A DNA stretch of 58,129 nt, filler included, from Dugesia japonica (GCA_001938525.1; 6 parts of 6 records of this genome joined end to end with filler, not necessarily neighbours in it); one strand, 5' to 3'. Positions 43 to 56,314 are shown, counted from the whole stretch's first letter. Made by a program: numbers and translations. Notes: generated from the sequence alone by a model not told the origin.

Positions 43-1039
43 TTAAAAAAAATTTTAAAATGCAGCTATGTTGAGTTTTAAAATTTATTTTTGGCTGATA
101 ATTTAAAAAGAAATTTATTAAAAATTCCAGGCACGTCATTTTCAGTGTATATATGTTTCATCTGAGTAGCATTTATTAATAAAAATTCTTAGCTACGTGA
201 CTTTTAGTGTATGTTTGTTGCAGCTGTGTTGCATTTGAATTTCATTTATTAAAATATATCTATCAAAAAACTTCAAAGAGAGGAGTCTTTGTGATATTTA
301 CTTAATAAAATATAACTATTAAAAATAAGAAAAGAGGGGAGTCTTTGTGGTATTTACATGATCAAATATTCAAATATTTAAATAAAATCTTTTCTTTACA
401 AGATGATATAAGACAGAACTTTTTTTCATAAAAAATCATATATGCTAGGTAATATTTTATAAAAAACATTAGTCATGCAATTTGTAATAAAGAATCTTAT
501 AAGTGATGCAATGTTTCTATAAAACATATTACTATTGACAACTGTCTATAACAAACATATTACTAGTGACAGCTTTCTATAAAAAACCTAAAAACTAATG
601 ACAATTGTCTATAAAAAATCTCATTAGCTGAGAATATTTCTTTACAAAATGATAAAAACATAGAACGTTTTTCATAAAAATCATAAATTCATGGAGCCGT
701 TCCATGTATCACTAATAAGTCTATAAATACAAACTTATAGGAAAATATTTTTATGATTTTTTAGGGTTAATGAGTATATTATTTACATAGTTAGCTTGTA
801 TTATTTACATAGCAACCGTGCAATTTAAGGATTATGAGTTTACATATGTTAATGAGTGTAAAGGTTTTATGAGTATATTATTTGTTTAGTTACCTTTATT
901 ATTTACATAGCAACCGTGTAATATAATGCTAATGAGGTTAATATTTATAAAGTAACCCTATATTTAAGGGTTTAACAGTATATTATTTACATATTAACCG
1001 TGTAATAAGAGGTCACCAGGCAAAATGCATGTTCATGAA
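43..1039 (+). repeat. Left terminal inverted repeat, with internal TATTATTTACATAG(CAACCGTG) repeats
   Basis: Reverse complement of ~10672-11380. For example 241-293 TTCATTTATTAAAATATATCTATCAAAAAACTTCAAAGAG pairs with ~11195-11245, and 983-1039 pairs with ~10672-10740. Confidence 0.9.
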
Positions 1040-1190
1040 ATTAATTATCATACATTGATTTATTCAAAATATTGTATTTGTTTACTTAGTATTATAAAAG
1101 ACCTTATTAATTTACTAATTATTAAAAAAATAAAAGAAAACAATTATCCAATAAAACATTTATTAATATAACATTTGTTTCTCATATTCT

Positions 1191-1695
1191 TCAGTCATCT
1201 TCAAAATTCTTTCTTTTAAGATTTCATGATGGTTCTTATTTTCATTAATAGGGAAATTCGATTGAAGTTCTATGATGAAATTGTTCATAACTTGAAACAT
1301 GTCTATTGTTTTTGTCTGCTATAAATATTTAAAATATTCATTCATCATCAACAGCATATATTCATGAAGTAATTCTGGTAAACTTTCATGTAATATTTCT
1401 AACACTAATTCTAAACAAAATGAAATAAAATATCATAAATTAAACTCTTACCATAATAATTTTCATAATTTTTGCCTTCAATTTCAGTATAACCACTATC
1501 ATCATCATTATCATCATCATCATCATGACATGTATCTTCCATCTTTTCATCTTCAAAAGTTTTTTCTTCATTAATATTGATTTTTTGGCTATCATTAGCT
1601 TCCATTATATTTTCTTTTCTTTCATGTTTAATGTCATTTTCAAGTCCTTTCTCTCCTTGGACAATGTTTTCAAAAATAATTTCACAAGTATTCAT
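1191..1695 (-). pseudogene. Element accessory gene A, acidic, two exons (intron 1411-1451)
   Basis: Removing the 41-nt GTAAGA...TTTAG intron joins ...YENYY to ELVLEILHESLPELLHEYML in frame; one internal stop. Homolog with the same intron at 25833-26398. Confidence 0.75.
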
Positions 1696-1704
1696 TTTAT
1701 AAAA

Positions 1705-1871
1705 AAGTGAATTTACTTTAAAAAAAAACACGTCTCATTTATATAAACCCGGTAACCAATCATATCAATCATAGTAAATATTAACAAATCATATCAATTA
1801 TAGTAAATATTAATCAAAATTAGTATCGCAACTAGTATATAAGCAAAGGTTTACATGAAAGTAATTACATT
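1705..1871. promoter_or_regulatory. Divergent promoter between genes A and B
   Basis: TATATAAA on minus (1738-1745), TATATAAG on plus (1836-1843), and two 29-nt AATCATATCAATYATAGTAAATATTAA repeats between them. Confidence 0.55.
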
Positions 1872-1883
1872 TAAAACTGAAAA

Positions 1884-2224
1884 ATGCAAGAGAATTAACT
1901 CACTAAAGAAATCGTGTCAACAATAACTGTGGAACTTGGAAAAATGACTGATTTCCAATTACAAGATCTTTCTTTTGAGAACAACGATTATCTATAACTT
2001 TAAAGTATTTATTTTTTATTTCATTATAAATTATTATTTTATTTTAGAAATCAGTTTCATTAAAAAGATCCTAATTTAGTTTGGTTATGTCTGGAATTTT
2101 TGAGAAGGATAGGAATATACTGGAAGCTATATTTGCAAGATTAAGCAGACAAATTGAAGTCAATGAAACTATTTATATAGGTTTTAAAGAACAAGATAAA
2201 AACAATTATGAAGACGACAGCTAA
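1884..2224 (+). pseudogene. Element accessory gene B, probable intron 2005-2047
   Basis: MQEN*LTKEIVSTITVELGK..., a GT..AG pyrimidine-rich spacer, then ...EKDRNILEAIFARLSRQIEV. Inverted homolog at 25224-25566. Several stops; the splice frame is not cleanly restored. Confidence 0.55.
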
Positions 2225-2529
2225 TATATGATTCGAGTGAAGATTAAAGGCTTCAAGAAGTCCATTAATTCAGTAGGAGTCATTTGGAAAGTTAAAAACA
2301 TAGAAAATAAGATCTAAAGTTGCTTAATTAATGTTTGCTTTATGTTATTTTTTATTGAAATAAATATTTAGGTAATAAATCTTGTTAATTTCTTTTAAAA
2401 CAAAACTTACTAAATAAAAACCTAATAAAAAACTAAATAAAAACAAACTAAAATAATAAAACAAACACTTAATAATAATAATACATTTTTTAATAATGAC
2501 AAAAATATTTTATAATTGCCATTATTGCG

Positions 2530-2937
2530 AGAATAATTATTCGACATAACCATTGATTGTTTTATAGAATTCATTTAATATAAAAGCTTTGATCACAATT
2601 TTAAAAAAGTCAATTCCTAACAAAGGCAAGGTCGAAATATCGAATTGTTATCCAATATCAATAAAAAACCAAACTTTTGATCAAAGATTTTACATTAAAT
2701 GAATTCGACAAAAATATTCATTATAATGATTAAGATCGTCTAGATTGTTCTCTATGTCTACCATCAGAATTAACTTTGCACATCCGAGAGCCGCGGTTGC
2801 CTTTCTTCGTTTAATAATCCCTGTTCTTCGTATATATCTGTGAGCATTCCTAAATTAAATTTATTAATAAACGTCAAACCTGTCTTACTAAAGTCCTCTT
2901 CCATTTTCTTCATTTTTCCAGTATTTGATGAATTCAT
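2530..2937 (-). pseudogene. Element accessory gene C, degenerate, function unknown
   Basis: ATG downstream of TATATATA. Coding-like run MNSSNTGKMKKMEEDFSKT... with stops and a frameshift. Confidence 0.35.
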
Positions 2938-3096
2938 TTTTAAAATTACAAGAAATAATAATGAAATGCATTATATATATGCATAATAAAAAACCACAAC
3001 GTATTATATTAATTATTTGAAATTTTAATATCTAAATTTAAATTGATATTTTTTGTACTTGCATTGTAAACGTTTAGCATCCGTGTTGCGAATTTT

Positions 3097-3573
3097 TTAA
3101 ATTTTATCAAGCAAATTGCACATATCTGAAGTAATGTTATTCACATATCCCTGAAAATACAAATTATTAAACCCTAGTGTCACTAGTTTTCCTGTTGAGA
3201 ACACATTTACACATAGAAGGTCATATTTTACAAGTCTTAGAGCAAGAAATAACTCTCGTTCGAACCAACAGTTGACTATTCTTGCTAATTTATACAAATT
3301 TATTGACACTCCCATGTTTACGAAAATTTTTAACGATTGTAATTGTACATTTTTTATATCATAGGGGTTTAAATCATTCGGTTTCAATAGTTTCTTACAA
3401 CCTATTATTCTACATTTTCCTGATCTGAAGAATAAAATTGTATATTTTTCACTTTTGACTTGGAATTGACATGATGTGCCTATAGGAAAGCTCGTTTTCT
3501 TTGTTACTTCTTGCGGCACTTCACCTCCGTAATTAATATTGGTTATCATAATTAATGAATTAATGAGGAACAT
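3097..3573 (-). CDS. TATA-box-binding-protein (TBP)-like protein, element-encoded (likely start ATG 3549)
   Basis: Two TBP repeats: TILFFRSGKCRIIGCK, and INLYKLA...FERELFLAL...CVNVFSTGKLVTLG. Canonical TBP has TALIFASGKMVCTGAK and YEPELFPGL...LIFVSGKIVITG. Confidence 0.85.
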   Translation of the reverse strand: MFLINSLIMITNINYGGEVPQEVTKKTSFPIGTSCQFQVKSEKYTILFFRSGKCRIIGCKKLLKPNDLNPYDIKNVQLQSLKIFVNMGVSINLYKLARIVNCWFERELFLALRLVKYDLLCVNVFSTGKLVTLGFNNLYFQGYVNNITSDMCNLLDKI

Positions 3574-3662
3574 TTGGGGTCTTGATGGATTTAATTTAAT
3601 TGATTCGTTAAAACAAATATAAACAATGTAATAAATTATAAATAAATTAAAGAAAAAACAAG

Positions 3663-4219
3663 ATGAAGAGATTAAGAAATGATGTAGTCTATCAAATGTT
3701 AGGAACTAGTAGTAGTGTGAAAAAGCAGATAAAGAGCTTGGATTGACTAAATCTGAATTTTGTAATATTAAAACGAAAATTATAAATGGTTTTGATACTA
3801 ATGGGAGCAAAAGATTAGGACGAGAAGATGTTATTGCTGTTGATGATTTGTATCAGGACGCAAATAAAGAAAAGGATTTCAATAATTTATTCACAAAAAT
3901 ATAGAAACATTGTAATTTTACTGTGATATTTATTACTCAAAATCTATTTCATCAAGGGGGTAGTCATAGAACCCGCAATTTAAACGTGCAATATTTGGTT
4001 CTATTCAAAAGCCCTAGAGATCAGACGGTCATTGATTTTCTAGCAACACAAGCATATTCTAATGATATACAATTTCGTATTGAACCATTTCAAGATGTCA
4101 CAGAAATACCACATGGATATTTATTTCTTAAGTTTACACAACAATGTCCAGATGATTATAGAGTAAAAACAGATATATTCAATTCAAATGGTATCACAAT
4201 ATATAAACAAAATACGTAA
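3663..4219 (+). pseudogene. A32/FtsK-HerA-like genome packaging ATPase
   Basis: Walker B VIAVDD and Polinton-type motifs IFITQNLF, NVQYLVLFKSPRD, PHGYLF. Walker A decayed; internal deletion and a stop. Confidence 0.88.
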
Positions 4220-4498
4220 TTTTTCATAATATTATAAAAAAATAACAAAATTTAAGAAATTTGTAGTTGATCAAGTAACTGATGGTGTTGTTAATCATCA
4301 AAAACTATCTTTTGAGAAGAAAAAGTATGGAAAAAAGAAGAAACCATCATATAGAATCAATCATGTAGAAACAATCATAGGAAACATCATATAAATAAGA
4401 AGAATCGAGTAAATAAAAGAAATATATTTAAAAAACTTGCAAAAAGAAATAGAAAGAAGCTGAGAATGATGAACAGATAAACGATTATAAACAAATAA

Positions 4499-4867
4499 AT
4501 GATATGTATTATTTTAATCAATACAAATGAAATTACAAAGAAGCATTCTGTTATTTTTACAGCTTTGATTAAATCATCAAAACCATTTAGAATGAGAATT
4601 TTACAATCATTCCCACCATTTGTTATAGATGATTTACTTGAAATTATTATAAATATTGTTCGTAGTAATGTAGATTGGAGTGCAGCCAAATAAAAAACAN
4701 NNNNNNNNNNNNNNNNNNNNNNNNNNNNNNNNNNNNNNNNNNNNNNNNNNNNNNNNNNNNNAATAGAAAATAAATGAGACGAGTAATGAATAATCAAAGT
4801 GGTGGTTTTTTAGCAGCATTGCTACGAATTGCATTAGCTGCATTAGGCTTAACTCATTTTAAATAAA
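4499..4867 (+). pseudogene. Small Polinton/adintovirus core-type protein ending QSGGFLAALL
   Basis: IDDLLEIIINIVRSNV and, after the N gap, NNQSGGFLAALLRIALAALG. This is the QxGGFL-amphipathic tail typical of Maverick small ORFs next to the ATPase. Confidence 0.6.
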
Positions 4868-4973
4868 CAATGGTAGACTTTATAACATCAATATTAATAA
4901 TTAACTCAAATGAACAATGGGTGGATTGCAATCATTACCAACTTTGACTTGAAATTTGAATAGAATTGTTGTA

Positions 4974-5365
4974 ATGGAAACAAAAATGAAGACAATATAG
5001 ACGGATCCAAAAAAACCCGGAGGTTTTCGAGGCATAGAAAAGTTGAGGAAAGCAGCTCAAAGAACAAAACGAAGGACAAAAAAGGAGTTATCTGGTCATC
5101 TAGTGTACAGTCTAAACAAGTCAATGTTGAAAAGATTTCCAACAAAAGCGTATAAAGCCTATGGTATTTATGATTTATGATAAATGTATCTAATTGAAAT
5201 GATTAATAAATTTTACAAGTATATATTTTGTCTTTTATCGTTGTGTTCAATAGATTTGCAAGAACTGTTCCATTTTAATCAAAGGGACTGAAATAATAAA
5301 CAATATTATGTCAAATGGAATGGATACAAAAACTAAGTTGGATAGTATCAACACAAATAAAATAA
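4974..5365 (+). pseudogene. Retroviral-like (c-)integrase with chromodomain, catalytic core largely deleted
   Basis: DPKKPGGFRGIEKL...YSLNK...KRFP...GIYDL...YKYI...VFNRFARTVP, then directly QYYVKWNGY...SWI (chromodomain). Confidence 0.82.
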
Positions 5366-5381
5366 CAAGACGAAAGTTTAG

Positions 5382-6513
5382 ATGGAATCAAATAACTTCT
5401 ATACACTTTTACCTAGTAATAGTAGTCCACTATTCATCCAAATAATACTGCTAGAAATGACATTGTTGATCTGCAAAACCCAATTTACATGTATAGTAGT
5501 TGGGAAGTAGCCTTGATGGATTTCACCTTAGTATATTCAGCCATGCCGATTTACAGTCCATCTAGGATTGAATATGAAATATTTACAATAATTGAAAAGG
5601 AACTAATACTTGATGTTAACAACAAAGAAATAATAAATAATAATAATAATAAATAATAATAAATAAATAAATAATAAAGTTCTTTTAACTGTTAATTCTC
5701 AAGGCAAATATAAAAATAACTAGGATACTGTTATACAATTATCAAAAGAAAACGTGTTATTCTTTACTAGTGATATTACATTTCACAGTTTATTCTTTGA
5801 TAGTCGGGAAACTTTAAAAAGATTTTCATATTTTAGCGGTGAATATGTAAGGGAAGATATTAAATTAATTTTTTATGCTAGTAAGAATTTTGAAGATAAA
5901 TCATTTGCTCTTGGCTTTGGTAAGTTTAAAAACGATGAGTCCATTGGAAAAAAAATTAAATATTATTTTCTGATTGTAACTAAACATTCTTTTCAATTTG
6001 AATCTGAATTGTATATAAAGAATTTAAATCAATTTTAAAAAGCACCTTCTATAGTTATTTAAAACTTTTAAATTAAATAAAGATGAACTATTTGAATTTA
6101 CATTAGCAAGTAGAACTAAAAGTGTTAAATTCGATAAAATATTAAAATTAAAACATTAGGATCAAAAGAATTGCAATATACTTGAATACAATTGAATGAT
6201 AAACAACTACTATTTAAAAGTAATAAGAAACCTAGAATATTAAAGTGTTATAATGAAATGTCCATCTATTGTAGTATTGTTAAGCCTATAGTTGTTGGTG
6301 ATGTTAATGTTCTTTTATTGAAAGCATTATGGGTAGAAGAACATGAGAATGATGAGGTAGTTTAATTAATTGTTGATCATACCATGTATTTACCTATTTC
6401 TTCATCATATATAAACAATATAGAAATATCAGTATACGTGATGATAGTAGACAACTAGTCAACTTTGCTGAAGACTCAAAAACTCATTTAACGTTACATT
6501 TTAGAAAAATTAA
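5382..6513 (+). pseudogene. Minor capsid protein (penton, single jelly roll)
   Basis: N-terminal FYTLLPSNSS..HPNNT...WEVAL; C-terminal IYCSIVKPIVVGD...YLPI...IEISIRDD...LTLHFRK. Frameshifts present. Confidence 0.85.
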
Positions 6514-6514
6514 T

Positions 6515-6960
6515 AAAGAATTCTGATATTGTATCATTGTACAGTACTAGTCAAGCAGGTGGAGAATTACCTTACTTTCTTGGAAAACAGTATGTATCTG
6601 GTTGGTTACGAACAAAAGGGAGATTTGCTTTGCCTATTCTGAGACGTATTGGTTCTTTTGGTATGAAAACAGCTCATGGTTTACTAGCTAATTGAAAATA
6701 CGGGAAAATACTAACCACATTGAAATCAAATGCATTAGCTGAACTTGGAAATGTAGTTTCTTCCTTATCTAATAGAGTTACCAGTATGATTCCAAAAGTA
6801 GCTGGTGTAGTACCATAAAGTATAACTAATAAAATACCATTTGAAATAACTAATATACTAACAAATCAATCTAAAGCAGAACCGACTAATAAAAAACGTA
6901 AAAAATCACATGCATAACGTATAAACAAATGAATGAGAGGACATGGAACAATATTTGAAA
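6515..6960 (+). pseudogene. Polinton core-type basic protein (QAGG motif)
   Basis: YSTSQAGGELPYFLGKQY.SGWLRT.GRFALPILRRIG, lying between minor and major capsid genes as in other Mavericks. Confidence 0.7.
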
Positions 6961-6964
6961 AATT

Positions 6965-7127
6965 ATTTTAGGTAAAACTGAATTATGTAATTTTGATCAA
7001 CCATCTCCACATGTTGTAATTGAAAATGGTACTTTCGAAGATGTCTTTCCTATGAATTCAATTTATGAATCGCAAAGCGATGTAGAGTTTTTTATAAATG
7101 GATCTCAAACAGAATATATGGATTTGA
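6965..7127 (+). pseudogene. Major capsid protein (double jelly roll), N-terminal piece
   Basis: KTELCNFDQPSPHVVIENGTFEDVFP...VEFFINGSQTEYMDL matches the Polinton MCP N-terminus (KSELDLF..P.TQ..IE...IEF.I.G...Y.DL). Confidence 0.8.
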
Positions 7128-7488
7128 AGTAGGTAGATAGTGGAGCATGTCCACTATAGAAAATCGTCCACAATCGAGCTCCCCTTCCCCTCGTCGGCAA
7201 TTGAAAAAGTGTGGACGAATTTTCAAAAATAAATTGAAATATTGGACGAATTTTTATAAATAAATTAAAATTATAGACGAATATTTAAAAATAAATTAAA
7301 AGTATGGACGAATTTTAAAAAAATTAAATTAATTAATAAAAAAAACAAAAAGTAGGGATAAATTATTAAAAATAAATTTAAAAAGTTTTACAAAATTAAA
7401 AGTGGTGCTTAATTTTTTCTGTGTATTTAGTTCAAATGTGTATTTAGAATTCAAATATGAAAAAGCAAGAAATTACTTCAAGCATGAG

Positions 7489-7815
7489 ATGATTTTCTTA
7501 AAGAAAACAATCAATTATACTTTTCAAGTAATATTTGATTTGCTAATTACTTTATTAATACTTTTTATTTAGGATCCAGTAAAAGTAAAGCCTTGTCTTT
7601 ATGATTTGTACATATCTGAAATCAGTAATAAAAATCAAAAGACTCTTAATGAATTATTCGTAAGAATTAATGAAAACATTAAAATTGAAGATGCAACATT
7701 TATTAAATCTAAAGAAGAAAATGTTCAAGAAAGTAAATCAATCATTACAGTTGAAATTATTAGTTATAAGAAAGTTAAATCAACTCAAAAGTGTGAAGAT
7801 AATTTTATTGAATAA
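7489..7815 (+). CDS. Small two-exon ORF in the nested fragment (intron 7528-7572), function unknown
   Basis: The 45-nt GTAATA...TTTAG intron joins MIFLKKTINYTFQ in frame to DPVKVKPCLYDLYISE. Confidence 0.45.
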
Positions 7816-8027
7816 ATATTAGTATAATTAATAGACTTATCTTAATAATTTCCAAGTTTTTTAATAACTTTTATAAAACGAGTATAAAACAGTAAAGTTT
7901 ATGTAATTTAATCCCATGTTATGCGGTGATCTAGTGACTGTTTTGTATAACATTTGGCCACTGAAATTATAAGATTAAAATGAATAATTTAAGCAATAAA
8001 GATTACTTAAAGTATTTGGATCTCTTT

Positions 8028-8700
8028 CTATTTTACATTCATGTTGTCGATTGCTAAAGCCTTTTGTTTGATATTCATTTGAACTTTATTTATTGATTCG
8101 GGACTTGAATTACTTAAATCATCAGTAAATTCTTTAATTAGTGCTTCTTTTTTGTTCTCATAAAACTCATTTACAACCGTTGACAATTTAAGTTCATGAA
8201 ATTTAACTAAATTATCCATTAGAAATGACATGTTTTCCAAAGAATCTGGATTAAATGTCAGTTTATCAATTAGTTCTAATCTTCCAAGTATTACCAGGCT
8301 ATCCAAGAATTGGATTTTAATAATAGCTTGTAGACCACTTTGTAATGTTACTTCTAATTTATGACGATAAATTATAATTTCATTGTTTGATATTTCCTCA
8401 ATTGCATCGATAAATGGGTCAAGAGAGAATAAATTTGTTAGATTATTGGCAACATCAACTTTACATTTGTTGAGATAATCTTCATAATTCAACGANNAAC
8501 AACCTTTAGTCTCTGAAATAATTTTTGAAATAAAAGTTCTTCCATGCCATTTCATGTATTTATCATCATCTTCAATAACAAATCTTATTGTATATCAAAT
8601 TAAAGTTACTTGATAAGGATTGTAAAGATTTGACTGATACGGATAATGCGGTTCCCAGTACCTATATGTTGCATACACTTTTTTAGGATGTAATTCTTTC
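8028..8700 (-). pseudogene. Unknown protein in the nested fragment
   Basis: 175-aa ORF that extends ~48 codons further upstream through one stop; no recognisable motif. Confidence 0.5.
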
Positions 8701-8724
8701 GTTAAAAAATTTCAAAATTGAATG

Positions 8725-9625
8725 TGGAAATGGATCTTATCTTCACAAAGCATTGATTGAAACTTTAATAAATTATAATGATGATAGTAAGAATATATGT
8801 CTTGCAACAATGGTATATGGATCAGAAGCAGATAGAAAAAAGTCTATTGCAAAATCAAAACAATTATCATTATGTTGTTCATTGCAACTTGATTTCATGG
8901 ATCAACCAAAATAACTTATTCCTGTTGTCAATGTTCATATTTCAGTGAAACAAAAAGATGCTAATATTTGTTAGGAATCTGCAGCCAATGCACCTAAATA
9001 TGTATTACTATATGCAAAATTAATGGTTAGACGTGTACGCATTGAACCGTCAGTACTTGCTGCTCATCAAATGGATCTAAATAAGCAAAATTCGGTTTAT
9101 CCAATAAGAACCAAAGAAATCGTAGCATTTGCAATTAGTAAAGATAGTTCATCGTTTTATAAGGAACAAATCTTTGGTGATCGTCGATTACCTACCTTTA
9201 TTTTGGTTACATTTCAAAGTGGTGAACAATATAATGGTAGCTATAAAAGCTCGAGTTCAACATTTCAAAATTTTGGTGCTGCTTTTGTTTCCTTGACGAA
9301 AACACTGATTGTCTAGAAATATATACTCAAGATTTTACAAATGATAATAATGCCACAACATATATGTAATCTACAGTACGAAATATAAAATATTTGGATA
9401 AGAATATGAATTGTGGAATAACACTTCAAGAATTTAAGGATAATTATCCCTTCTTTACATTTGTTCTCGCTCCAGAATTCGATATAAATCAGAGCCAAGG
9501 AACAAGGAAATTTGAGATTGGATATGAAGTTTGCTTAAGCTTTAACAATATCGGCATATGCTCTCATTTATGGAGTATTTGAAAAAAGAAATTCAGATTA
9601 AAAAAACGGAACAGTATTGGTGTAA
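8725..9625 (+). pseudogene. Major capsid protein, central and C-terminal part
   Basis: YLHKALIETLINY, LQLDFMDQPK*LIP, LMVRRVRIEPSVLAAH, YPIR, RLPTFILV, YNGSY, FFTFVLAP. Confidence 0.9.
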
Positions 9626-9628
9626 ACA

Positions 9629-9880
9629 ATGTTATGTATTCTTGAAATAATTGTAATAAAGTAAGAGTTATTGTTTAATTTATTGTTTAATTTATTAATT
9701 CTATTCAGATTGAACGCAGTACATCAATGTTACTTAAATCATCTTATTTTAGTAAACAATGCCTTAATCGTCCAAACTCATTCAACAAATCTATGTGAAG
9801 AACACTAGATAGCGGTTTACAATAAAAGAAGCAACATTACACATGGAATATTTATTTGCATGTATTTGTATTTTAAGAAA
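9629..9880 (+). pseudogene. Element accessory gene D (intron 9661-9708)
   Basis: ATG 3 nt after the MCP stop; 48-nt GTAAGA...TTCAG intron conserved at 27269-27316. Confidence 0.5.
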
Positions 9881-10220
9881 TAAATGTTTTATTGTCAAAC
9901 AGTCTTGTTCATTTTTCTTTTTAATAATACTTAGAAACAAAAGTACTCTATTTAAATAAACTTTTTATTATTTCATATTATTTATTTAATTTTGTGAACA
10001 TGTCATGAACATAAATTTGACATGACACGAGCATGCATTTACATTAGTACCTCATATTACATGGTTATTATGTAAATAAACCCTATATTACAAGGTAACT
10101 TTGTAAATAATATATTTATCAAACTATTTACTTATAAGTATTTTTATAAAAATAATGCAAGAAAGAAACAAAATTATTATTCAAATCTATTTATTAAACA
10201 ACAAAATAATAATAATTACA

Positions 10221-10469
10221 TTAGTTCCGACTAAACAAATAAAATATCACAATGGGTGTCTATAAAGTTACAGCAATAAATTTATTTTTCTTTTGGATCT
10301 TCAATTCTTCCTTAATTTTATCCATGAATATTGATCGGACAATGAGTTCAACATATTCATGTTTTCTCAATAGACCATTGTCGATCCTGCTTATGAATTG
10401 AATTTCGTCAACGGATCAACTGGTAATTGAATCTGTAATTTGTTTAATATCTCTTTCCATTTGGTTCAT
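10221..10469 (-). pseudogene. Element accessory gene E, small protein with C-terminal hydrophobic (TM-like) tail
   Basis: Homolog of ORF 27685-27903 (VDEIQF...YVELIVRSIF.DKIKEELK); two stops in this copy. Confidence 0.65.
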
Positions 10470-10493
10470 TTTTATAATGACTTTGAATTGTAA

Positions 10494-10562
10494 AAGTGAC
10501 TTATATTACGAAACCTGCTGTTTATATACTTGCGGCGATACACACATACTCGTTATTTGTTA
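10494..10562 (-). promoter_or_regulatory. Element promoter: CAAATAACGAGTATG-TGTATCGC-N-AGTATATAAA, with TCACTT initiator ~30 nt downstream
   Basis: The same block precedes non-homologous gene B (25580-25650; partial at 1821-1871). Confidence 0.6.
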
Positions 10563-10671
10563 GATTTTATTGATCGTTAGAGGTTTTTAAGGAAATGAAT
10601 GAATATTATTAATTTTAATTTTTATGATTAGGTGTATTTTGTTTTAAATGATATGATTTGTTATCTAAAAT

Positions 10672-11715
10672 ATTCATGAACATGACGCGAGCATGTATTG
10701 TGCATGGTGATCTCATATTAAATGGTTAATGTGTAAATAAAATACACACTATGTAAATAATGTAAACACAAAATATATATTACACGGTTACATTGTAAAT
10801 AATACACTCAAAATCCTTATAATACATGGTTGCTTTGTAAATAGTACAAGGTAACTATGAAAATAGTATACTCATTAACCCTATACAATCATAAAAATAT
10901 TTTTATATATAGACTTATTAGTTATATATGGAAAGGCTCCATGAATTTATGATTTTTATGAAAAAGGTTCTATGTTTTTATCATTTTGTAAAGAAATGTT
11001 CTCAGCTAATGAGATTTTTTATTAAAGATAGCATCGCTAATGAGATTTTTTATAGAAAAGTGTCACTAGTAATATGTTTTTTATAGAAAATTACCTAGCA
11101 TATATGATTTTTTATGAAAAAAGTTCTGTCTTTTATTACCTTGTAAAGAAAAGATTTTATTTGAGTATTTGAATATTTGATCATGTAAATACGACAAAGA
11201 CTCCCCTCTTTGAAGTTTTTTGATAGATATATTTTAATAAATGAAACTCAGATGCAACACAGTTGCAACACATATACATTGAAAATCACGTGCCTGATAT
11301 TTTGAATAAATTTTTTTTTAATTTTCTCCCAAAAAGAAATTTTAAAACTCAACATAGCCCCCATTTTGAATTTTTTAAATATATCCAATAGGTATGCAAC
11401 TCAGATGTAACTCAGATGCAACACATACAATGAAACTTACGTGCGTGGTAATTTTATATGGATTTTTATTGATATTTTTAATAAAAGCAATAAGTATGCA
11501 AAATGAAAAATACACACACCCAGGATTAAAAAAACTGATCCGATCAAAAAATAAGTTGACATGACCAAATACTTTTTATCCTAAAATTCTAGAAAAAAAA
11601 CTAGTCCAAAAATACTGGCACCAAAATTCTGGCACAATCGTAATGTGTTTCCAAGCCACCCTCTCCAAATTAGGACATAAATAAAATTGTGCCAGTGCGC
11701 TACTATCTACCTACT
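10672..11715 (-). repeat. Right terminal inverted repeat, ending in AGTAGGTAGATAGT (read on minus)
   Basis: Matches 43-1039 in inverse orientation. The last ~330 nt contain GTGCCAG repeats and a terminus shared with three other element ends in the window. Confidence 0.88.
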
Positions 11716-12331: not shown

Positions 12332-12792
12332 TTATTTGGATATGCTTGTCTTGCTAGAAAATCAACAACAGTTTGATCTCTTGGATTTTTGAATAAAACC
12401 AAATATTGTACGTTTGAATTATGGGTTCTATGACTACCTCCCTGAGGAAATAGATTTTGAGTCACATTACGATGTCTCTATATTTTTGTGAATAAATTAT
12501 TGAAATCCTTTTCTTTATTTGCCTCCTGATACAGATTATCAACAACAATAACATCATCTGGTCTTAATTTTTTGCTCCAATTAGAATCAAAACCATTTAT
12601 AATTTTCAGTTTAATATTACAAAATTCAGATTTAGTCAATCCACGCTCCTCATCTGCACCTCCATGCGATTATATGTTTTTAAATTTAGACTTGAATAAC
12701 TTCCATTTCAATAATTGACATACAAACAAAGTTTTCCTGCTACCACTAGGTCTAACAATTTGATAGACTGCATCACTTTTTAATCTCTCCAT
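12332..12792 (-). pseudogene. Packaging ATPase, another copy of the TBP-family element
   Basis: VYQIVRPSGSRKT (decayed Walker A), VIVVDN, RHRN, NVQYLVLFKNPRD; near-collinear with 3663-4060. Confidence 0.88.
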
Positions 12793-12849
12793 CTTGTTTT
12801 TTCTTTAATTTATTCATAATTTATTACATTGCTTATAATTGAAAGTTAA

Positions 12850-13060
12850 TGTAATAGGTATGCCACTCAGATGCAACTCATATGCAACACACATACATTA
12901 AAAATCACATGCCTAATAATTTAAGACTGCCAATCTCATGCAAAATATAGACTCCGCATGCAAATTATCAAGACTGTCCCATCTCATACATAAATATAAA
13001 GTCTTTTCAAAAGAAATATCATAAAATTAAATTAAATTAAAAATTTCCCCCGCGAAAAAA
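12850..13060. repeat. TIR-related fragment abutting the ATPase upstream region
   Basis: ATAGGTATGCCACTCAGATGCAACTC resembles 11389-11430. Confidence 0.55.
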
Positions 13061-25566: not shown

Positions 25567-25832
25567 TTTTGAGTTGAAAAAGTGATTAAATTTATGTAAA
25601 CATTTGCTTATATACTAGTTGCAATACANACATACTCGTTATTTGTGAGTTCCTATTGGTTAATATTTGCTATAATTGATATGATTTGTTAATATTTCTT
25701 TTAAGTGTTGCGATTAGTTAATGTTTGCTAAAATTGATATGATTCGGTAATAATCGTTTAAATAGTTATGACTGGTTACCAGGTTTACATAAATANGACC
25801 TGGTTTNAAAATTAAATCCACTTTTTACAAAA

Positions 25833-26398
25833 ATGAATGGTTTTGAAAANNATTTATNAAAATCCCAATCAAAGTGGAAGAGCTCTTGTTAACCAGAAAG
25901 GATTAGAAAATATAATTGAAGCCATTAATAACGGAACCATGAATAGTAATGAAGAAGAAATAAAAGAAGAAACAATCATTTAAGATGAACAAATACCGGA
26001 TGATGAAAAGAAAGAAGACACATGTCATGACAAAAAATTGTAAGATGCATACCCTGACATTGATGACGATGGTGTTCATTTTGAAAATATGGATGAAAAA
26101 TATGAAAATTATTATGGTAAGAGTTTAATTTATTATTACTTTATTTAATTTTCTTTTTTTAGAATTAGCGAAACAGATATTAAATAAAAGGTTTCCAGAA
26201 TTTCTTAATGAATGTATGCTGTTGACCAAGGATGAATTTTTTACATATATATTGAGAACAACAGCAATAGACATGGTTTTAATTAGGGACTATTTCATCC
26301 AGGAACTTCGATTTGATTTCCCGTCTAATGTAAAAAAGACACATTATGAGATCTCGAAGGAAAATATTCTAAAAATGGCTGAAGATTTTGTAAATTAA
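25833..26398 (+). pseudogene. Accessory gene A (copy 2), intron 26117-26162
   Basis: The 46-nt intron joins YENYY to ELAKQILNKRFPEFLNECMLL; exon 2 is fully open. Confidence 0.75.
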
Positions 26399-26641
26399 AT
26401 GTTATGTTAATATATGTTTTATTGGATAATTGCCTTCTTTTATTTATTTATTGTTATATAATTAGTAAATTATTAAGTTTTTAGAAACAATAAATTAATA
26501 AGATTTTTTACAAATACTAAAATAATAAATAGTTTTTTTTATTAATAAATGCAATAGAAATGCAATAAGGATGCAAAAAAGCAACACGTACCTGTGAAGT
26601 TTTAATGAATGCAATAGGCATGCAATAGGGTTGCAACACAA

Positions 26642-27684: not shown

Positions 27685-27935
27685 TCAAATCCGTGAAAAC
27701 AAATAAAATAACACAATGGATGTCAATAAAGTCACAGTAACAAATTTGAATCTCTTTTGACTCTTCAATTCTTCCTTAATTTTGTCAATGAATATTGATC
27801 GAACAATAAGTTCTACATAATATTGTTTACTCATTGGACCATTTTCGAGTTTCAATAGGAATTGGATTTCGTCGACGGATCCACTGTTAATTGTTTCTGT
27901 CAATTTTTAAATTTCTTTTTCCAATTGATACATAT
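27685..27935 (-). CDS. Accessory gene E (copy 2), small C-terminally anchored membrane-protein-like ORF
   Basis: Hydrophobic tail FVTVTLLTSIVLFYLF; homolog at 10221-10469. Confidence 0.6.
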
Positions 27936-28139
27936 TGCGAATAAATTTGAACTGTAAAACAGATTTATACAACGAATGCTACTGATCATATACTCATAAC
28001 GATACATATATACTTGTTATTTTTTAGTTTCTAATAGTCGTTACCTATTTTAAAGAAAATGAATGGTTATTATTCATTTTAATTTATATGAGTGGGTGTA
28101 ATTTGTTTTACATTATATGATTTGTTATCTAAAATCATA

Positions 28140-28720
28140 TATACTTATGAATATGACGCGAGAATTCATTTGGCATGACGTGACCATGTATGTACATGGT
28201 GAAGTTATATTAAATGGTTGCTATCCAAATAATACCATCATAAACCATATAATACATGGTTGCTATGTAAATAATACAAGGTATCTATGCAAATAATACA
28301 CTCATAGACCCTATATTACACGGTTGCTATGTAAATAATAAAAGATAACTGTTCAAATAATACACTCATAAACACTATACACTTAAAAACTCTGTACATT
28401 CATAAAAATATTTACTTATAAGTTTTTTATATAGGCTTATAAGGTATTTATACAGTAATTTTTAATTATATTTATAAAAATGTTCTATACTCATAAACCC
28501 TATCCTATGAAACATCCTATACATTCATAAAAATATTTACTTATAAGTTTTTATATATTTTTATAAGATATTTATACAGTAATTTTAAGTTATATATATA
28601 TATGTGTAAATGTTCCACTTTCATAAAACCTATAGATTTATAAAATTATTTACTTATAAGGTATTTATACAATATTTTAAGACATATATGTATATATATA
28701 TATTTATATATATAAACAGC
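28140..28720. repeat. Inner TIR-type repeat array of copy 2
   Basis: GGTTGCTATGTAAATAATA and TATTTACTTATAAG repeats, related to 10680-10950. Confidence 0.7.
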
Positions 28721-52348: not shown

Positions 52349-55300
52349 ATGGAAGCAGTAAGATATCAATGTAACATTTGTAATAAAATATTTCAACGAC
52401 AATCGGGTCTTTCGACTCATAGAAAAAATTGTGGTAAAAGACATTTTAGATACAAGTGTGTAAGATGTAAGGATAGATTTAGAACACAAGCCGAACATGA
52501 TCATCATGTAAGTTTAAATGTTTGTGTGAATTTATATTGTTACATTTGTAAAGAAAAGTTTGCTAATCAGGAAAAAGCGAAAAGACATTATCAAAAACCA
52601 ATACATCGAGTAATTGAAGAGGATTATGCATATGATCANTTTACTCAAGAACCATCAAACACATTAATAGATGACGTATTTACAGGTCCTGAATATGAAG
52701 ATTTTTCAATTCGATATTTTGATGATTCTGGAATTGAATTAATAAGATTTGTTAATGATAAAGTTTTAAAAAGTAAAGAATCTTATTATCAAGATGAAAT
52801 TGAAAAAATTATTACAAAATATATTACATTTGGAAAAAGAATTCATGTTGATATTACAGTGGAGGCAAAATATTCAAAAACTTCAAACGGAACTACAGAT
52901 GAAACTTCAAATGAAAACTCTATTTCAGAAATAAATTATAGATCTAATACATGTAATAAAAGAATAACAGTAAAAGAAAAAATTCCTGAAATCACCGGAA
53001 TATTAATAAGAGATTTAGTAACAGAAATTAATGGTGATAAAAGTGAAAGTGATTGGAATTTAGATCATATAGTTTATTATAGAATAAGATTAGGTATTTA
53101 TAAATCAAAGGCGGGTGGAACATATAAAAAATTACCATTCAGTAAAAAAGGAATTATTAATATTGAAAACATGGATAATAAATGTTTTCTTTATTCAATT
53201 TTAGCACACAAGTATAATTATTAACACCCAACACGAGTAAGCCTCTATAAGAAACATTTAAATGAATTTAATTTAACAGGCGTAACTTTTCAAGTGACAG
53301 CTGAAGGTATAAAAACATTTGAAAAAAATAATGATTGGCAAATTAATGTTTTTGAGATTGAAGATAAAAATAAAGTTCCTGAATCAACTCACATTTCTCA
53401 TTTTCTTTGTAATCTACCACATAATGAAAAGAAATGTAATTTATTACTTTATAAAAATCATTATGTCCTATGTAAAAATTTAAATACACTTATTAGTTAT
53501 CATGGNNNNNNNNNNNNNNNNNNNNNNNNNNNNNNNNNNNNNNNNNNNNNNNNNNCATTATGTCCTATGTAAAAATTTAAATACACTTATTAGTTATCAT
53601 GGAAGTGAAAAATACATGTGTGTAAATTGAATGAATGCATATTCCACAGAAGAAAAAGTTGATAGACATCAAGAAGAGTGTGTTCATCAAAAACCAACAA
53701 AAATTAAATTTGAAAAAAAAGAATTTCATGAATTTTCTGATTTTAATTTTATGATAAAAATCCATTTGCAATATATGCGGATTTTGAGGCATACACTAAC
53801 ACAATTGATAATAAACATAAACCAATTTCACTTGGTATTTATCTTGTAAGTAATCAAGAGGATTTAATAAAAACAAATTATACTGTTTTAACAGGTGAAA
53901 ATGTGATAAATGATTTTTTAAAATACTTGGAAAATTTAAATGAAAAAGTGGAGGAGATTCTTGAAACCAATTTTATTAACCCACAACCAAGAATTTTAAA
54001 TGATGATAAATGTTTTTACTGTAAGAAAAAAATTGAAGATCACATAGAAGAAGTTTACAACTTTTTCAGTGGAGAATTTATTGGAGGAGCTCACGAAAAT
54101 TGTAATAAGAAATATAAAAAANTTAAGAAAATTTCTTTGTACCATTTTACTTTCATAACGCTTCTGGTTATAACAATCATTTATTTTTTTGTGAACTTAT
54201 AGAAAAACACCAAGATAATATAACAGGAATTATACCACACACTAATGAAGAATATATTTCTTTTTCATTTAAAAATATTAGGTTTTTAGATTCTTACAGG
54301 ATGTGTAGCCCAGGCACATCAGTAGAAAAAATGGGCATAGTTTTAAATAAAAATAATAAATACCCTCATTTAAAATCATTTAATTTAAAAGCAAAGAAAT
54401 TGCATTTCCTTATGAATATTTAAAAGGAAATAATGCGGAAGAAGTTGAGCAATTATTTAAAAGTAATAAAATACCCACAATGGAAGATTTCTTCACTACG
54501 TTAAGACAGAAAAAAAATAACTTTTAAAGAATATAAAGAATTTTTAAAAGAGATTTTAAAGTAGAAAATATGTGGGAACACATGCTTCTTTATTTAAAAC
54601 TTGATTTTTTAATTCTTACAGATTTCATGGAAAATCTTCGAGAAATTTCTATGGAATATTATGAGATTGATTCATGCTTTTGCTACTCAGCTCCAGGACT
54701 TACTTGGGTAGCAGGAATTAAATTTACTGGAGTTAAACTAAGATATCCAAAACAAGAAAGTTATGAATATTGTTTAAAAATCAACGAGCAGGTCGTGGCG
54801 GTGTTTCTGCAGTTACAGGCGAAAGACAAGTTTTTCCATTATATAAAAATATCCCAGAAANGAAATTTACAAAAGCACAAAAAGAAGTAATAAAAAAATG
54901 TTTAGAGCGAGGAGAAGAAATTCCAGATGAATTTTTTAAAGAAACATTTTTAAAATATTTAGATCAAAAATCTTAATATGCATGTATGACAAAACCTCTT
55001 CCTATGGGTGATTACGTCGAATGTAAAGATTTAACATATGAAAAAACAACAGAAGAGTATAATTTCATGTATGAAGTGGATTTAAAGTATCTTCCTGAAA
55101 TTCATGAAAATCTAGGTATTATCCTTTTGGACCAGAGGTTAAATACACGAAAAAATATGGAAGCACCATATCAAGCTAATTTAAATAAAAAATTTCCAAA
55201 AGATAATACAAAATTAGTACTTACTCAATTTGATTAGTTTAATTACTATATTCTAGGAAGTACTTTAGACTTATATTTAGAACAAGGTATGAAATTGAAA

Positions 55301-56314
55301 AATATTTGTTATAAAGCAAAAGTTCCAACATCTCGATGGTTAAAACCATATATTCTTTTTAACATTGAAAAGAGAAATGAGGCAAAAAGAAATGGAGATG
55401 ATTTTGCATCTGATTTTTTCAAGTTTTTAAATAATGCCTTTTATGGAAAATGTCTTGAAGATGTTTTTAAAAGACAGTCTATAGTATTTGTTACAAATNN
55501 NNNNNNNNNNNNNNNNNNNNNNNNNNNNNNNNNNNNNNNNNNNNNNNNTTATGGAAAATGTCTTGAAGATGTTTTTAAAAGACAGTCTATAGTATTTGTT
55601 ACAAATAATAAAGAGTTTCAAAAGGAATCTGCAAAATAATCATTTAGAGATTTTAAAATATTTACAAGACATTTAGCAGCAATGCACATGCAAAAAAGCA
55701 ATGTAAAATATAATAAATTTCTAATGATTGGTTTCGTTATTTTAGAATATGCGAAAGAGATTATGTATAATTTTATATATGTTCAAATGCAACCATTAAT
55801 TGGAACAGAAAATTATAAAATTCAATACACAGACACCGATTCTCTATTTGTTGAAATAAGGGGGCAAGAAAATTTGGACAAGTTATCAACACTTTTTTGC
55901 GCCAGCACCTTTCAAATGAAAGACGAACTGCCAAATGGTGAAATTACACAGGCAGATTTTATAAGGGCAAAATGTTATGATTTTAATTATATTGTAAATC
56001 ATTTAATTGAGTATTACAAAAGACACAAGGGCGCATCAAAAACCAATGATGTAAAAATGGTGGATTATGATAAAATTTTAGAAGATGCGCAACAAGGGAT
56101 TTCAGGAATAAATTATAGTTTAAAATCGAATTAATTAAATCTAGTTAAAATAGAATTAATTTCTCAAGCAAAAATATTAATGACTGCTTATGATGATAAA
56201 GTTTTAATTGAATTAAACGGAATTATAACTTGGCCACAAGGAAATCGATTTTGGTGTGAAAGATGTGAAGCATGGCATTTTAGATTAGATCTTTTATGGG
56301 ATAGATTAGACTGA
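52349..56314 (+). pseudogene. polB: Protein-primed family B DNA polymerase with N-terminal zinc fingers
   Basis: IINIENMDNKCFLYSILA; ExoI YADFE; ExoII FHNASGYN; FLDSY; SAPGLTW; RGGVS; YLD..LY region; K.LNNAFYGK; YTDTDS; MKDE; YDDK. Several stops and frameshifts. Confidence 0.95.

Follow-up and report, generated by a model that had tools for sequence, protein, structure and literature searches.

Polintons are integrated elements, and a general question about them is whether and how their silent DNA switches to particle production. A locus of Dugesia japonica, analysed here within a stretch of 58,129 nt (the window), combines a virus-type gene for a short TATA-binding protein (TBP) with recurrent TATA boxes upstream of unrelated genes. 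Which promoters might such a TBP read? The earlier note on this DNA proposed the TATA boxes themselves, together with an initiator at three of the four sites, as part of a self-contained transcription module. In the following, we discuss the element, its two classes of promoter motif and their possible readers.

Architecture of the Element

Element copy 1 is the decayed remnant of a Polinton that encodes a TBP. Like Polintons/Mavericks (adintoviruses, MELD viruses; PMC8502044), it has terminal inverted repeats, an A32-type ATPase, an rve integrase and putative capsid genes, whereas pPolB and the adenain protease, which gave no match within this deleted, non-autonomous copy, are seen in its TBP-bearing relatives (DNA_pol_B_2 in L048, Peptidase_C5 in L031; Pfam). 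The long repeats lie at 48..1034 and 10689..11376 (73-91% identity in inverted blastn pieces), and the integrase and ATPase remnants match proteins of the relatives L012 and L036, those of L036 matching rve and Pox_A32. The core genes lie on the plus strand and comprise the broken packaging ATPase (3663..4219; 69% to that of L036), a conserved small ORF of family C4 (~4499-4693), a stretch with the broken integrase, a putative minor capsid gene and a small basic ORF (5001..6773; tblastn to relatives), and a broken, putative major capsid gene (6971..9622; tblastn to family C9, E 1e-67) that an insertion (~7130-8600) divides in two. C9 gave no match in Pfam, and its putative reading as the major capsid protein is based on size and position. 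On the minus strand lie the first exon/ORF of gene A (1411..1695; acidic and of no family; another copy lies at ~25832-26420), the open frame of the TBP-like gene (3097..3549) and gene E (10263..10469; family C14 in relatives, tblastn E 5e-8).

TATA Boxes With an Initiator

TATATAAR precedes genes A, B and E, with its first T at 1745 (-), 1836 (+), 10528 (-) and 25614 (-), that is 50, 48, 59 and 48 nt before the respective ATG. All motif coordinates claimed earlier agree with the sequence. Promoter A (1705..1745, minus strand) combines TATATAAA (1738-1745) with TCACTT (1705-1710), and promoter B of copy 1 (1836..1886, plus strand) combines TATATAAG with a two-mismatch initiator variant at +31, ahead of the ATG at 1884. 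Between these divergent promoters, two 29-nt tandem units (1753..1810) are shared by both. Promoter E (10482..10658, minus strand) contains TCACTT (10494-10499), TATATAAA (10521-10528), a conserved block (~10536-10559) and AATCATATCA (10649-10658). In the second element copy, promoter B (25568..25744, minus strand) retains TCACTT (25580-25585), TATATAAG (25607-25614), the conserved block to 25645 and the 29-nt units, while promoters A (25760..25834, plus strand; variant TATA box and initiator) and E (27934..28130, minus strand; both decayed) have lost the exact motifs. The TBP gene of the window has the initiator-like TCATTAA twice upstream and no TATA box. A distance of 29-35 nt from TATA box to TCACTT had been proposed for three sites; we measure 31 nt for both B and E, where TATAWAW is followed by an initiator at the ~30-33 nt of a Pol II core promoter, but 37 nt at A, where it spans a homopolymer run.

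The four TATA sites trace to only two origins. Sites 1836 and 25614 both belong to gene B, which is present in each of the two copies of the element, and the DNA upstream of B shares ~190 nt of homology with that upstream of E (69% over 177 nt, E 2.7e-13), with an alignment z of 17.6 that is close to the 18.7 of the orthologous copies B1 and B2. Hence, the upstream block that B and E have in common, including CAAATAACGAGTAT at 10559 and 25645, is real, but it is one duplicated promoter in front of two non-homologous genes; convergent evolution of the block was considered and is rejected on the same homology. Promoter A of copy 1 does not align with B or with E (z -0.4 to 1.0), and the A2-B2 alignment reaches a z of 3.3 where the two regions compared overlap. 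The recurrent AATCATATCA, found five times in the window, is better described as part of the 29-nt tandem unit, which has a CCAAT box at its head.

In DNA of 75% AT, such motifs could be functionless chance words multiplied by copying and promoter duplication. TATATAAR and TCACTT are each common, with 49 sites versus 33.3+/-5.7 and 35 versus 42.7, respectively, in 200 local dinucleotide shuffles, the window has only two independent origins, and neither A nor E retains the motifs in its second copy. The pair is rare: TATA box and TCACTT 29-38 nt apart, counted from the first T to the A of the initiator, a pattern picked post hoc, after it had been seen, occur three times versus 0.11 expected, and 0 of 200 shuffles reach three. 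Moreover, gene B carries the full initiator in 95-98% of the family DNA depth, and a 30-33 nt design recurs across distant lineages, which largely refutes an origin by chance; we consider it very improbable.

This recurrence is seen among relatives of the element (53 loci, grouped into 33 lineages by 75% TBP identity, all TBP-encoding and mostly with Polinton genes), in which the DNA upstream of 59 core genes and of 43 accessory and TBP genes, with 30 TBP lineages, was compared. TATA box plus initiator stands upstream of 19 of the 43 accessory/TBP genes versus 2 of the 59 core genes, and when distances of 10-60 nt are scanned, 18 of 24 pairs fall at 30-33 nt, where the spacing peaks. The top 7-mers found de novo before accessory and TBP genes include TCATTAT (17/43 versus 1.3 expected), AGTATAT (11 versus 0.8) and CCAATCA (8 versus 0.7), the last enriched before the TATA-plus-initiator genes and comparable to the CCAAT-headed units of the window. 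The relatives of gene E have neither this design nor the core-gene box described below (0/3 lineages).

The proposal of a co-regulated gene class in the element arms is therefore upheld as regards a recurring, tightly spaced promoter class on accessory genes, but it is not supported as regards the viral TBP as its reader. The class is a canonical promoter of host type, made of CCAAT box, TATA box and initiator. In 9 of 30 lineages it precedes the very gene for the TBP (its strict form is absent from the other 21), so that the host must be able to use it while viral TBP is still lacking. Taken alone, the motif first flagged is an ordinary host-type promoter, and the class is likely an early one read by the host, including the TBP gene in some relatives. 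That the viral TBP instead reads these arm promoters, as a self-contained and possibly self-amplifying module, would fit the conservation of the class (19/43), the saddle and three conserved phenylalanines kept by the protein, and TATATAAR as a natural TBP ligand. According to PMC4893493, the herpesvirus TBP mimic BcRF1 of EBV binds TATA and TATT equally in vitro, so the fold alone gives no specificity. We nevertheless regard this reading as unlikely, since it also leaves unexplained a stronger, non-canonical box upstream of the core genes.

A Second Box Upstream of the Core Genes

This second motif, (C/T)ATAAAC(A), was missed in the earlier promoter grammar. It is a distinct TATA variant in effect limited to structural genes, standing upstream of 46 of 59 core genes versus 2 of 43 others and before the TBP gene in none of 30 lineages; it precedes the ATPase gene in 11 of 11 cases, at 32-50 nt. 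The Fisher values for the class split (1.6e-14 and 4.4e-7) are overstated, because five families (C6, C7 and C12 as accessory, C2 and C17 as core) were classed after their upstream DNA had been seen and because the lineages are related. YATAAAC occurs 111 times on the core strand versus 5 times on the opposite one, and the top 7-mer found de novo before core genes is ATAAACA (42/59 versus 2.3 expected); 13 of the 59 core genes lack a YATAAAC box. Single-base neighbours of the box are almost missing at positions 2-6, and position 7 is C in 33, T in 5 and A or G in no cases.

The window has five YATAAAC boxes on the core strand and none on the opposite one (1.17 expected; 4 of 500 shuffles reach five), and each of the five in the element precedes a core gene. 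TATAAACA lies on the plus strand at 3618..3625, in the divergent TBP/ATPase gap 45 nt before the ATPase ATG (3663); at 4202..4209, within the 3' end of the ATPase gene and ahead of the small ORF that follows; at 4486..4493, before the small core ORF of family C4; at 6410..6417, inside the 3' end of the putative minor capsid gene and ~105 nt upstream of the small basic ORF; and at 6920..6927, before the putative major capsid gene. One-mismatch variants are found at the ATPase of a further locus, L054, and at an ATPase fragment of the window at 12.8 kb. Promoter E matches both promoter classes (TATATAAACA), as its TATATAAA at 10521-10528 also contains TATAAACA.

Since 22 of 48 boxes lie within the end of an upstream ORF, the box might alternatively not be a promoter but serve the gene before it as a polyadenylation-like 3'-end signal, or simply follow from the coding of conserved peptides (YKQ, xIN), and six sites of the YKQ/HKQ type have a chance of 0.3-0.5 by codon usage alone. 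Against this, the other 26 sites are outside any upstream family ORF and the box at 3618 falls between two head-to-head genes, with no same-strand gene upstream of it. The Ile-Asn sites use rare codons: 16 of the 22 in-ORF boxes are written ATA-AAC, each ~0.05-0.10 likely by codon usage. These include 5 of 5 related lineages with the box before the small basic ORF, the placement seen at 6410 in the window. We give both variants of this explanation very little weight.

A search of the open literature on Polintons, virophages/PLVs, adintoviruses and giant viruses found no description of the TATAAAC box; the main text of PMC8502044 does not contain the word promoter and does not describe a two-class promoter code, and the searched portion of one adintovirus supplement gave no TBP match.

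The Short TBP and Candidate Readers of the Core-Gene Box

The TBP-like gene product of ~150 aa matches Pfam TBP (PF00352; 37.9 bits versus a cut-off of 22.9), and its model (pLDDT 91.6) has the saddle fold of cellular TBP and of the TBP-like proteins of large DNA viruses, whose giant-virus models also match (to yeast TBP Z 13.1, rmsd 3.0, 155 aligned). The three phenylalanines are invariant between viral and cellular-type TBPs. The two repeats are not both complete: the first has a short helix 1 and, compared with cellular-type TBPs, lacks ~20 residues at helix 2, of which the model keeps only 4 residues. In cellular TBPs, the helix shortened here is the docking surface for TFIIA/TAF1/Brf1. 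Repeat 2 has Ser where cellular TBPs carry Asn and retains the EPE loop, the TFIIB contact of cellular TBPs. As (C/T)ATAAAC(A) marks core genes and never the TBP gene, TATAAACA is, by this comparison, the more likely candidate target of the viral TBP than TATA plus initiator.

Both classes might also be promoters with YATAAACA read by host TBP/TRF, a Forkhead factor or another viral protein, the short TBP serving as decoy or modulator. The Forkhead consensus is RYAAAYA, which YATAAACA matches, the motif is one base off TATAAAA, the compared relatives all encode a TBP, and a TBP with a truncated repeat 1 and Ser for Asn in repeat 2 may bind DNA poorly. The 111 versus 5 strand bias and the fixed ~35-nt distance, however, are those of a core-promoter box and not of an orientation-free enhancer, and C is kept against A and G at position 7, where host TATA has A/T. 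This reading is rather improbable, albeit less so than a viral TBP acting at the arm promoters.

Transcript Reads and Further Loci

In three raw RNA runs of low depth, none of them a cap library, no read-start pile-up was found at any initiator, and reads pass across the B initiator. Most RNA reads match at <90% and continue into unlike sequence. In run X19, a weak mate-strand bias over the B, TBP and E bins flips with gene direction and is missing from the capsid bins; run X22, of low depth, has the opposite mate bias. Run X22 also contains a five-molecule pile at 3600, pairing with five ends at 3224, which may be duplicates.

A scan of genome contigs yielded two loci. L054, found independently via its ATPase, has a TBP gene behind TATA box and initiator, and four YATAAAC on the gene strand versus none on the opposite one. 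L055 was considered as a TBP-less comparison and set aside as a broken fragment beside unrelated DNA. Viral contigs scanned with TBP, ATPase and capsid queries gave no match, a search for the motif together with a Walker A pattern returned four loci, all without the Polinton gene set, and a phage collection gave no ATPase match.

A Possible Early/Late Cascade and Its Counterparts

We consider it probable that the two motif classes represent an early class, TATA plus initiator, read by the host, and a late class, (C/T)ATAAAC(A), read by the short TBP of the element. Host TFIID would read CCAAT, TATAWAW and TCA(C/T)WWT, the latter two 30-33 nt apart, so that the accessory genes would be transcribed together with the gene for the viral TBP. 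This protein might then bind the variant box, which lies ~35 nt ahead of the core ATGs and has C as its seventh base, and bring host polymerase II to the virion genes; in the lineage of the window, gene E would run from the duplicate of the gene B promoter. The two-class code would allow likely early and late gene sets to be sorted by sequence alone and points to a candidate switch protein with its 8-bp target. More tentatively, and with somewhat less confidence than doubt, we suggest that a widespread Polinton clade runs a herpesvirus-like cascade in which a single stripped-down TBP suffices to turn host polymerase II towards a TATAAACA box of its own at all virion genes. If true, no smaller switch for late transcription would be known from a virus, and the case would provide a natural TBP of altered specificity at TATA position 7 as well as sequence evidence of a timed lytic cycle in these 'transposons'.

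The putative early class resembles early promoters of invertebrate viruses as given in PMC1550435, namely WSSV, whose host-read early genes have TATA plus (a/c)TCANT, and baculovirus (TATA plus CAGT). The resemblance lies in a TATA box with a TCA-type initiator ~30 nt after it and a short leader, whereas the initiator predicted from sequence for the class here differs, being TCA(C/T)WWT. A counterpart of the whole arrangement, in mode of action only, is the herpesvirus system with its six-subunit vPIC (EBV BcRF1, KSHV ORF24, HCMV UL87) and its dependence on DNA replication. In it, according to PMC4893493, a virus-encoded TBP-fold early protein reads the TATT box of beta/gamma-herpesvirus late promoters; there, too, early genes have upstream sites and a canonical TATA, and structural genes a bare TATA variant. 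Two differences stand out: TATT alters position 4, whereas the variant in the window alters position 7 and often position 1, and the herpesvirus TBP mimics have several hundred aa, whereas the protein of the window, with its predicted function, has ~150.

Element and TBP

A decayed Polinton/adintovirus-like element, bounded by terminal inverted repeats, occupies ~48-11376 in AT-rich eukaryotic, probably animal, DNA (window GC per kb 0.18-0.37). Its genes are A, B and E, a TBP-like gene (3097-3549), those for ATPase and integrase, and putative genes for a minor and a major capsid protein. In relatives, Pfam names only ATPase, integrase, protease and pPolB; the capsids bear no Pfam name and their labels are putative. 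The TBP identity of the 3097-3549 product is real, judging from a Pfam match of 37.9 bits and a structural model (pLDDT 91.6) compared with yeast TBP (Z 13.1, rmsd 3.0, 155 aligned). No further TBP match occurs elsewhere in the window. It is one of a family of proteins of ~150 aa (23 matches; 58 representatives at E<=1e-30) in which the first repeat is shortened and three phenylalanines are invariant; the fourth does not align clearly.

A metagenome scan yielded 53 loci with the same TBP type, neighboured by Polinton ATPase (15), integrase (9), putative capsids (7-8), protease (7) and pPolB (3), many of the contigs being too short to show any Polinton neighbour gene. A further Polinton contig (L054; TBP, ATPase, integrase) is filed within a bacterial MAG, likely through binning contamination. 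The TBP-bearing relatives L021, L023, L024, L026 and L035, and L048 and L054, have an LRR gene or a phospholipase A2-like ORF; the latter sits near TBP.

Several other features accompany the element. An insertion at ~7130-8600, spanned by family contigs, interrupts a putative capsid gene and contains a 31-nt repeat in four copies (7200-7320) as well as a 175-aa minus-strand ORF of no family (8028-8555). Subterminal repeats of 31-64 nt with a palindromic TTAC..GTAA core (700-1030, 10050-10110, 10700-10850, 28200-28380), also present inside the right arm, may be signals for replication or packaging. Over the whole stretch, both DNA and RNA depth are highest at 2384-2704, where loose ends are numerous; this is probably a separate abundant repeat within the element. 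Another Polinton-like element, a broken one, lies at 52349-56134 and contains zinc fingers and pPolB.

TATA and Initiator Motifs

The earlier note placed TATATAAR and TCACTT before A, B and E, and every coordinate proved right: the first T of TATATAAR lies at 1745(-), 1836(+), 10528(-) and 25614(-), and TCACTT at 1705-1710, 10494-10499 and 25580-25585. Each word taken by itself is common (49 and 35 in the window vs 33.3 and 42.7 in shuffles), but their pairing, a pattern picked post hoc, is rare (3 vs 0.11 expected; 0/200 shuffles). At genes B and E the initiator A follows the first T by 31 nt; at gene A the interval is 37 nt. The four sites are not independent cases, as 1836 and 25614 both belong to gene B, once in each of two copies of the element, and the E promoter is a duplicate of B's. 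The upstream regions of B and E align over ~190 nt (69%, E 2.7e-13; z 17.6 vs 18.7 for the orthologous B copies) while the gene bodies do not; hence the block shared by these non-homologous genes is genuine but stems from promoter duplication. A, the other half of the divergent A/B promoter, aligns with neither; AATCATATCA is part of a tandem unit of 29 nt with a CCAAT box at its head. Promoters E of copy 1 and B of copy 2 share, amid diverged flanks, a block of 22 nt that differs by a single N (10536-10559, 25622-25645); promoter B of copy 1 lacks this block, which is a candidate host factor site.

In their second copies, A and E no longer have the exact motifs, and the initiator of B in copy 1 is a two-mismatch form. 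A DNA run from this organism placed 57,868 contigs on the stretch; among the matches listed, contigs making up 95% and 98% of the depth at B's initiator (49-50 contigs) have the full hexamer, as do 10/10 reads of RNA run X19.

For relatives, loci were collapsed to 33 lineage groups (TBP identity at least 75%), each family being represented in a lineage by a single gene that had at least 110 nt upstream, all from TBP-carrying loci. TCACTTT is one form of TCA(C/T)WWT, and the top words before 43 accessory and TBP genes include TCATTAT, AGTATAT and CCAATCA. TATAWAW with an initiator 29-33 nt on precedes 19/43 of these genes vs 2/59 core genes, five families having been assigned to a class after their upstream DNA was seen and the lineages being related. 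Over a 10-60 nt range, 18/24 pairs lie at 30-33 nt. Thus, the class is real and family-wide. The strict form precedes TBP in 9/30 lineages; the other 21, and the window's TBP, lack it. Relatives of E have neither motif class (0/3 lineages), and E's own TATA matches both.

Candidate Late Box

ATAAACA is the top word upstream of 59 core genes (42 vs 2.3 expected). With the same classing of genes, (C/T)ATAAAC precedes 46 of these, 13 being without it, vs 2/43 others; it lies before ATPase in 11/11 (at 32-50 nt) and before TBP in 0/30. The core strand has 111 sites and the other strand 5. Mere protein conservation was set aside, because 26/48 sites fall outside family ORFs and 16/22 inside use the rare codon pair ATA-AAC. 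In the window element, boxes at 3618, 4202, 4486, 6410 and 6920 each precede a core gene, and none lies on the opposite strand.

An inverted ATPase fragment beside terminal-repeat-like DNA (12334-12922) has a variant at the late-box site. The LRR gene of relatives, signal-peptide-like, lies behind a late box in 4/4 lineages. TBP genes without TATA have TGTTT(T/A)A, late-box-like in reverse, 43-64 nt before the ATG in 9/13 lineages vs 2/17 with TATA; in the window (3605-3625) it lies ~66 nt upstream of TBP, adjoining the ATPase late box. This may point to a third promoter type or to autoregulation.

Proposed Promoter Recognition

The TATA+initiator class resembles promoters of host polymerase II. 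Given this host-type look and its position before TBP in 9/30 lineages, the host probably reads it first. The viral TBP would then read a TATA variant that stands bare, in one orientation and at a set distance ahead of the virion genes, and we lean towards the late box as its natural candidate target. The earlier note instead had the viral TBP reading the TATA+TCACTT promoters of arm genes as a self-contained module. The gene class is borne out, whereas the TBP target is likely reversed. Binding of TATA and TATT alike by EBV BcRF1 in vitro (PMC4893493, in part) still allows the arm-gene version, which we consider improbable in view of the host-type look of a class that precedes the TBP gene itself.

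Support from RNA is weak. The X19 mate-strand ratio flips with gene direction (B 2.8/6.0, 1.3/9.3; TBP 28.9/15.2, 42.4/8.4; E 21.5/3.2, 18.4/6.4) but stays even across the capsid gene (28.4/26.6, 22.8/24.2); run X22 is opposite, at low depth. Most of the reads are divergent, and their starts showed no pile-up.

Comparison With Known Systems

No description of these two promoter classes was found in the literature searched, which lay outside subscription journals and some supplements. MELD viruses have TBP-like genes named in a figure legend of PMC8502044 and in its preprint; the word "promoter" occurs in the main text of neither. WSSV early genes carry TATA + TCANT, taken as host-read (PMC1550435, in part), and many accessory and TBP genes of these Polintons similarly have TATA with a TCA-type initiator. 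In beta/gamma-herpesviruses, early promoters combine upstream sites with TATA, and late promoters have a TATT box to which an early viral protein resembling TBP binds (excerpts of PMC4893493); by analogy, the variant box before virion genes may be the viral-TBP target here. A viral TBP with a variant late box is a known kind, proposed here in a new virus group; this analysis adds the contrasting TATA+initiator class with the spacing between its motifs, the codon test, and the duplication behind promoters B and E.
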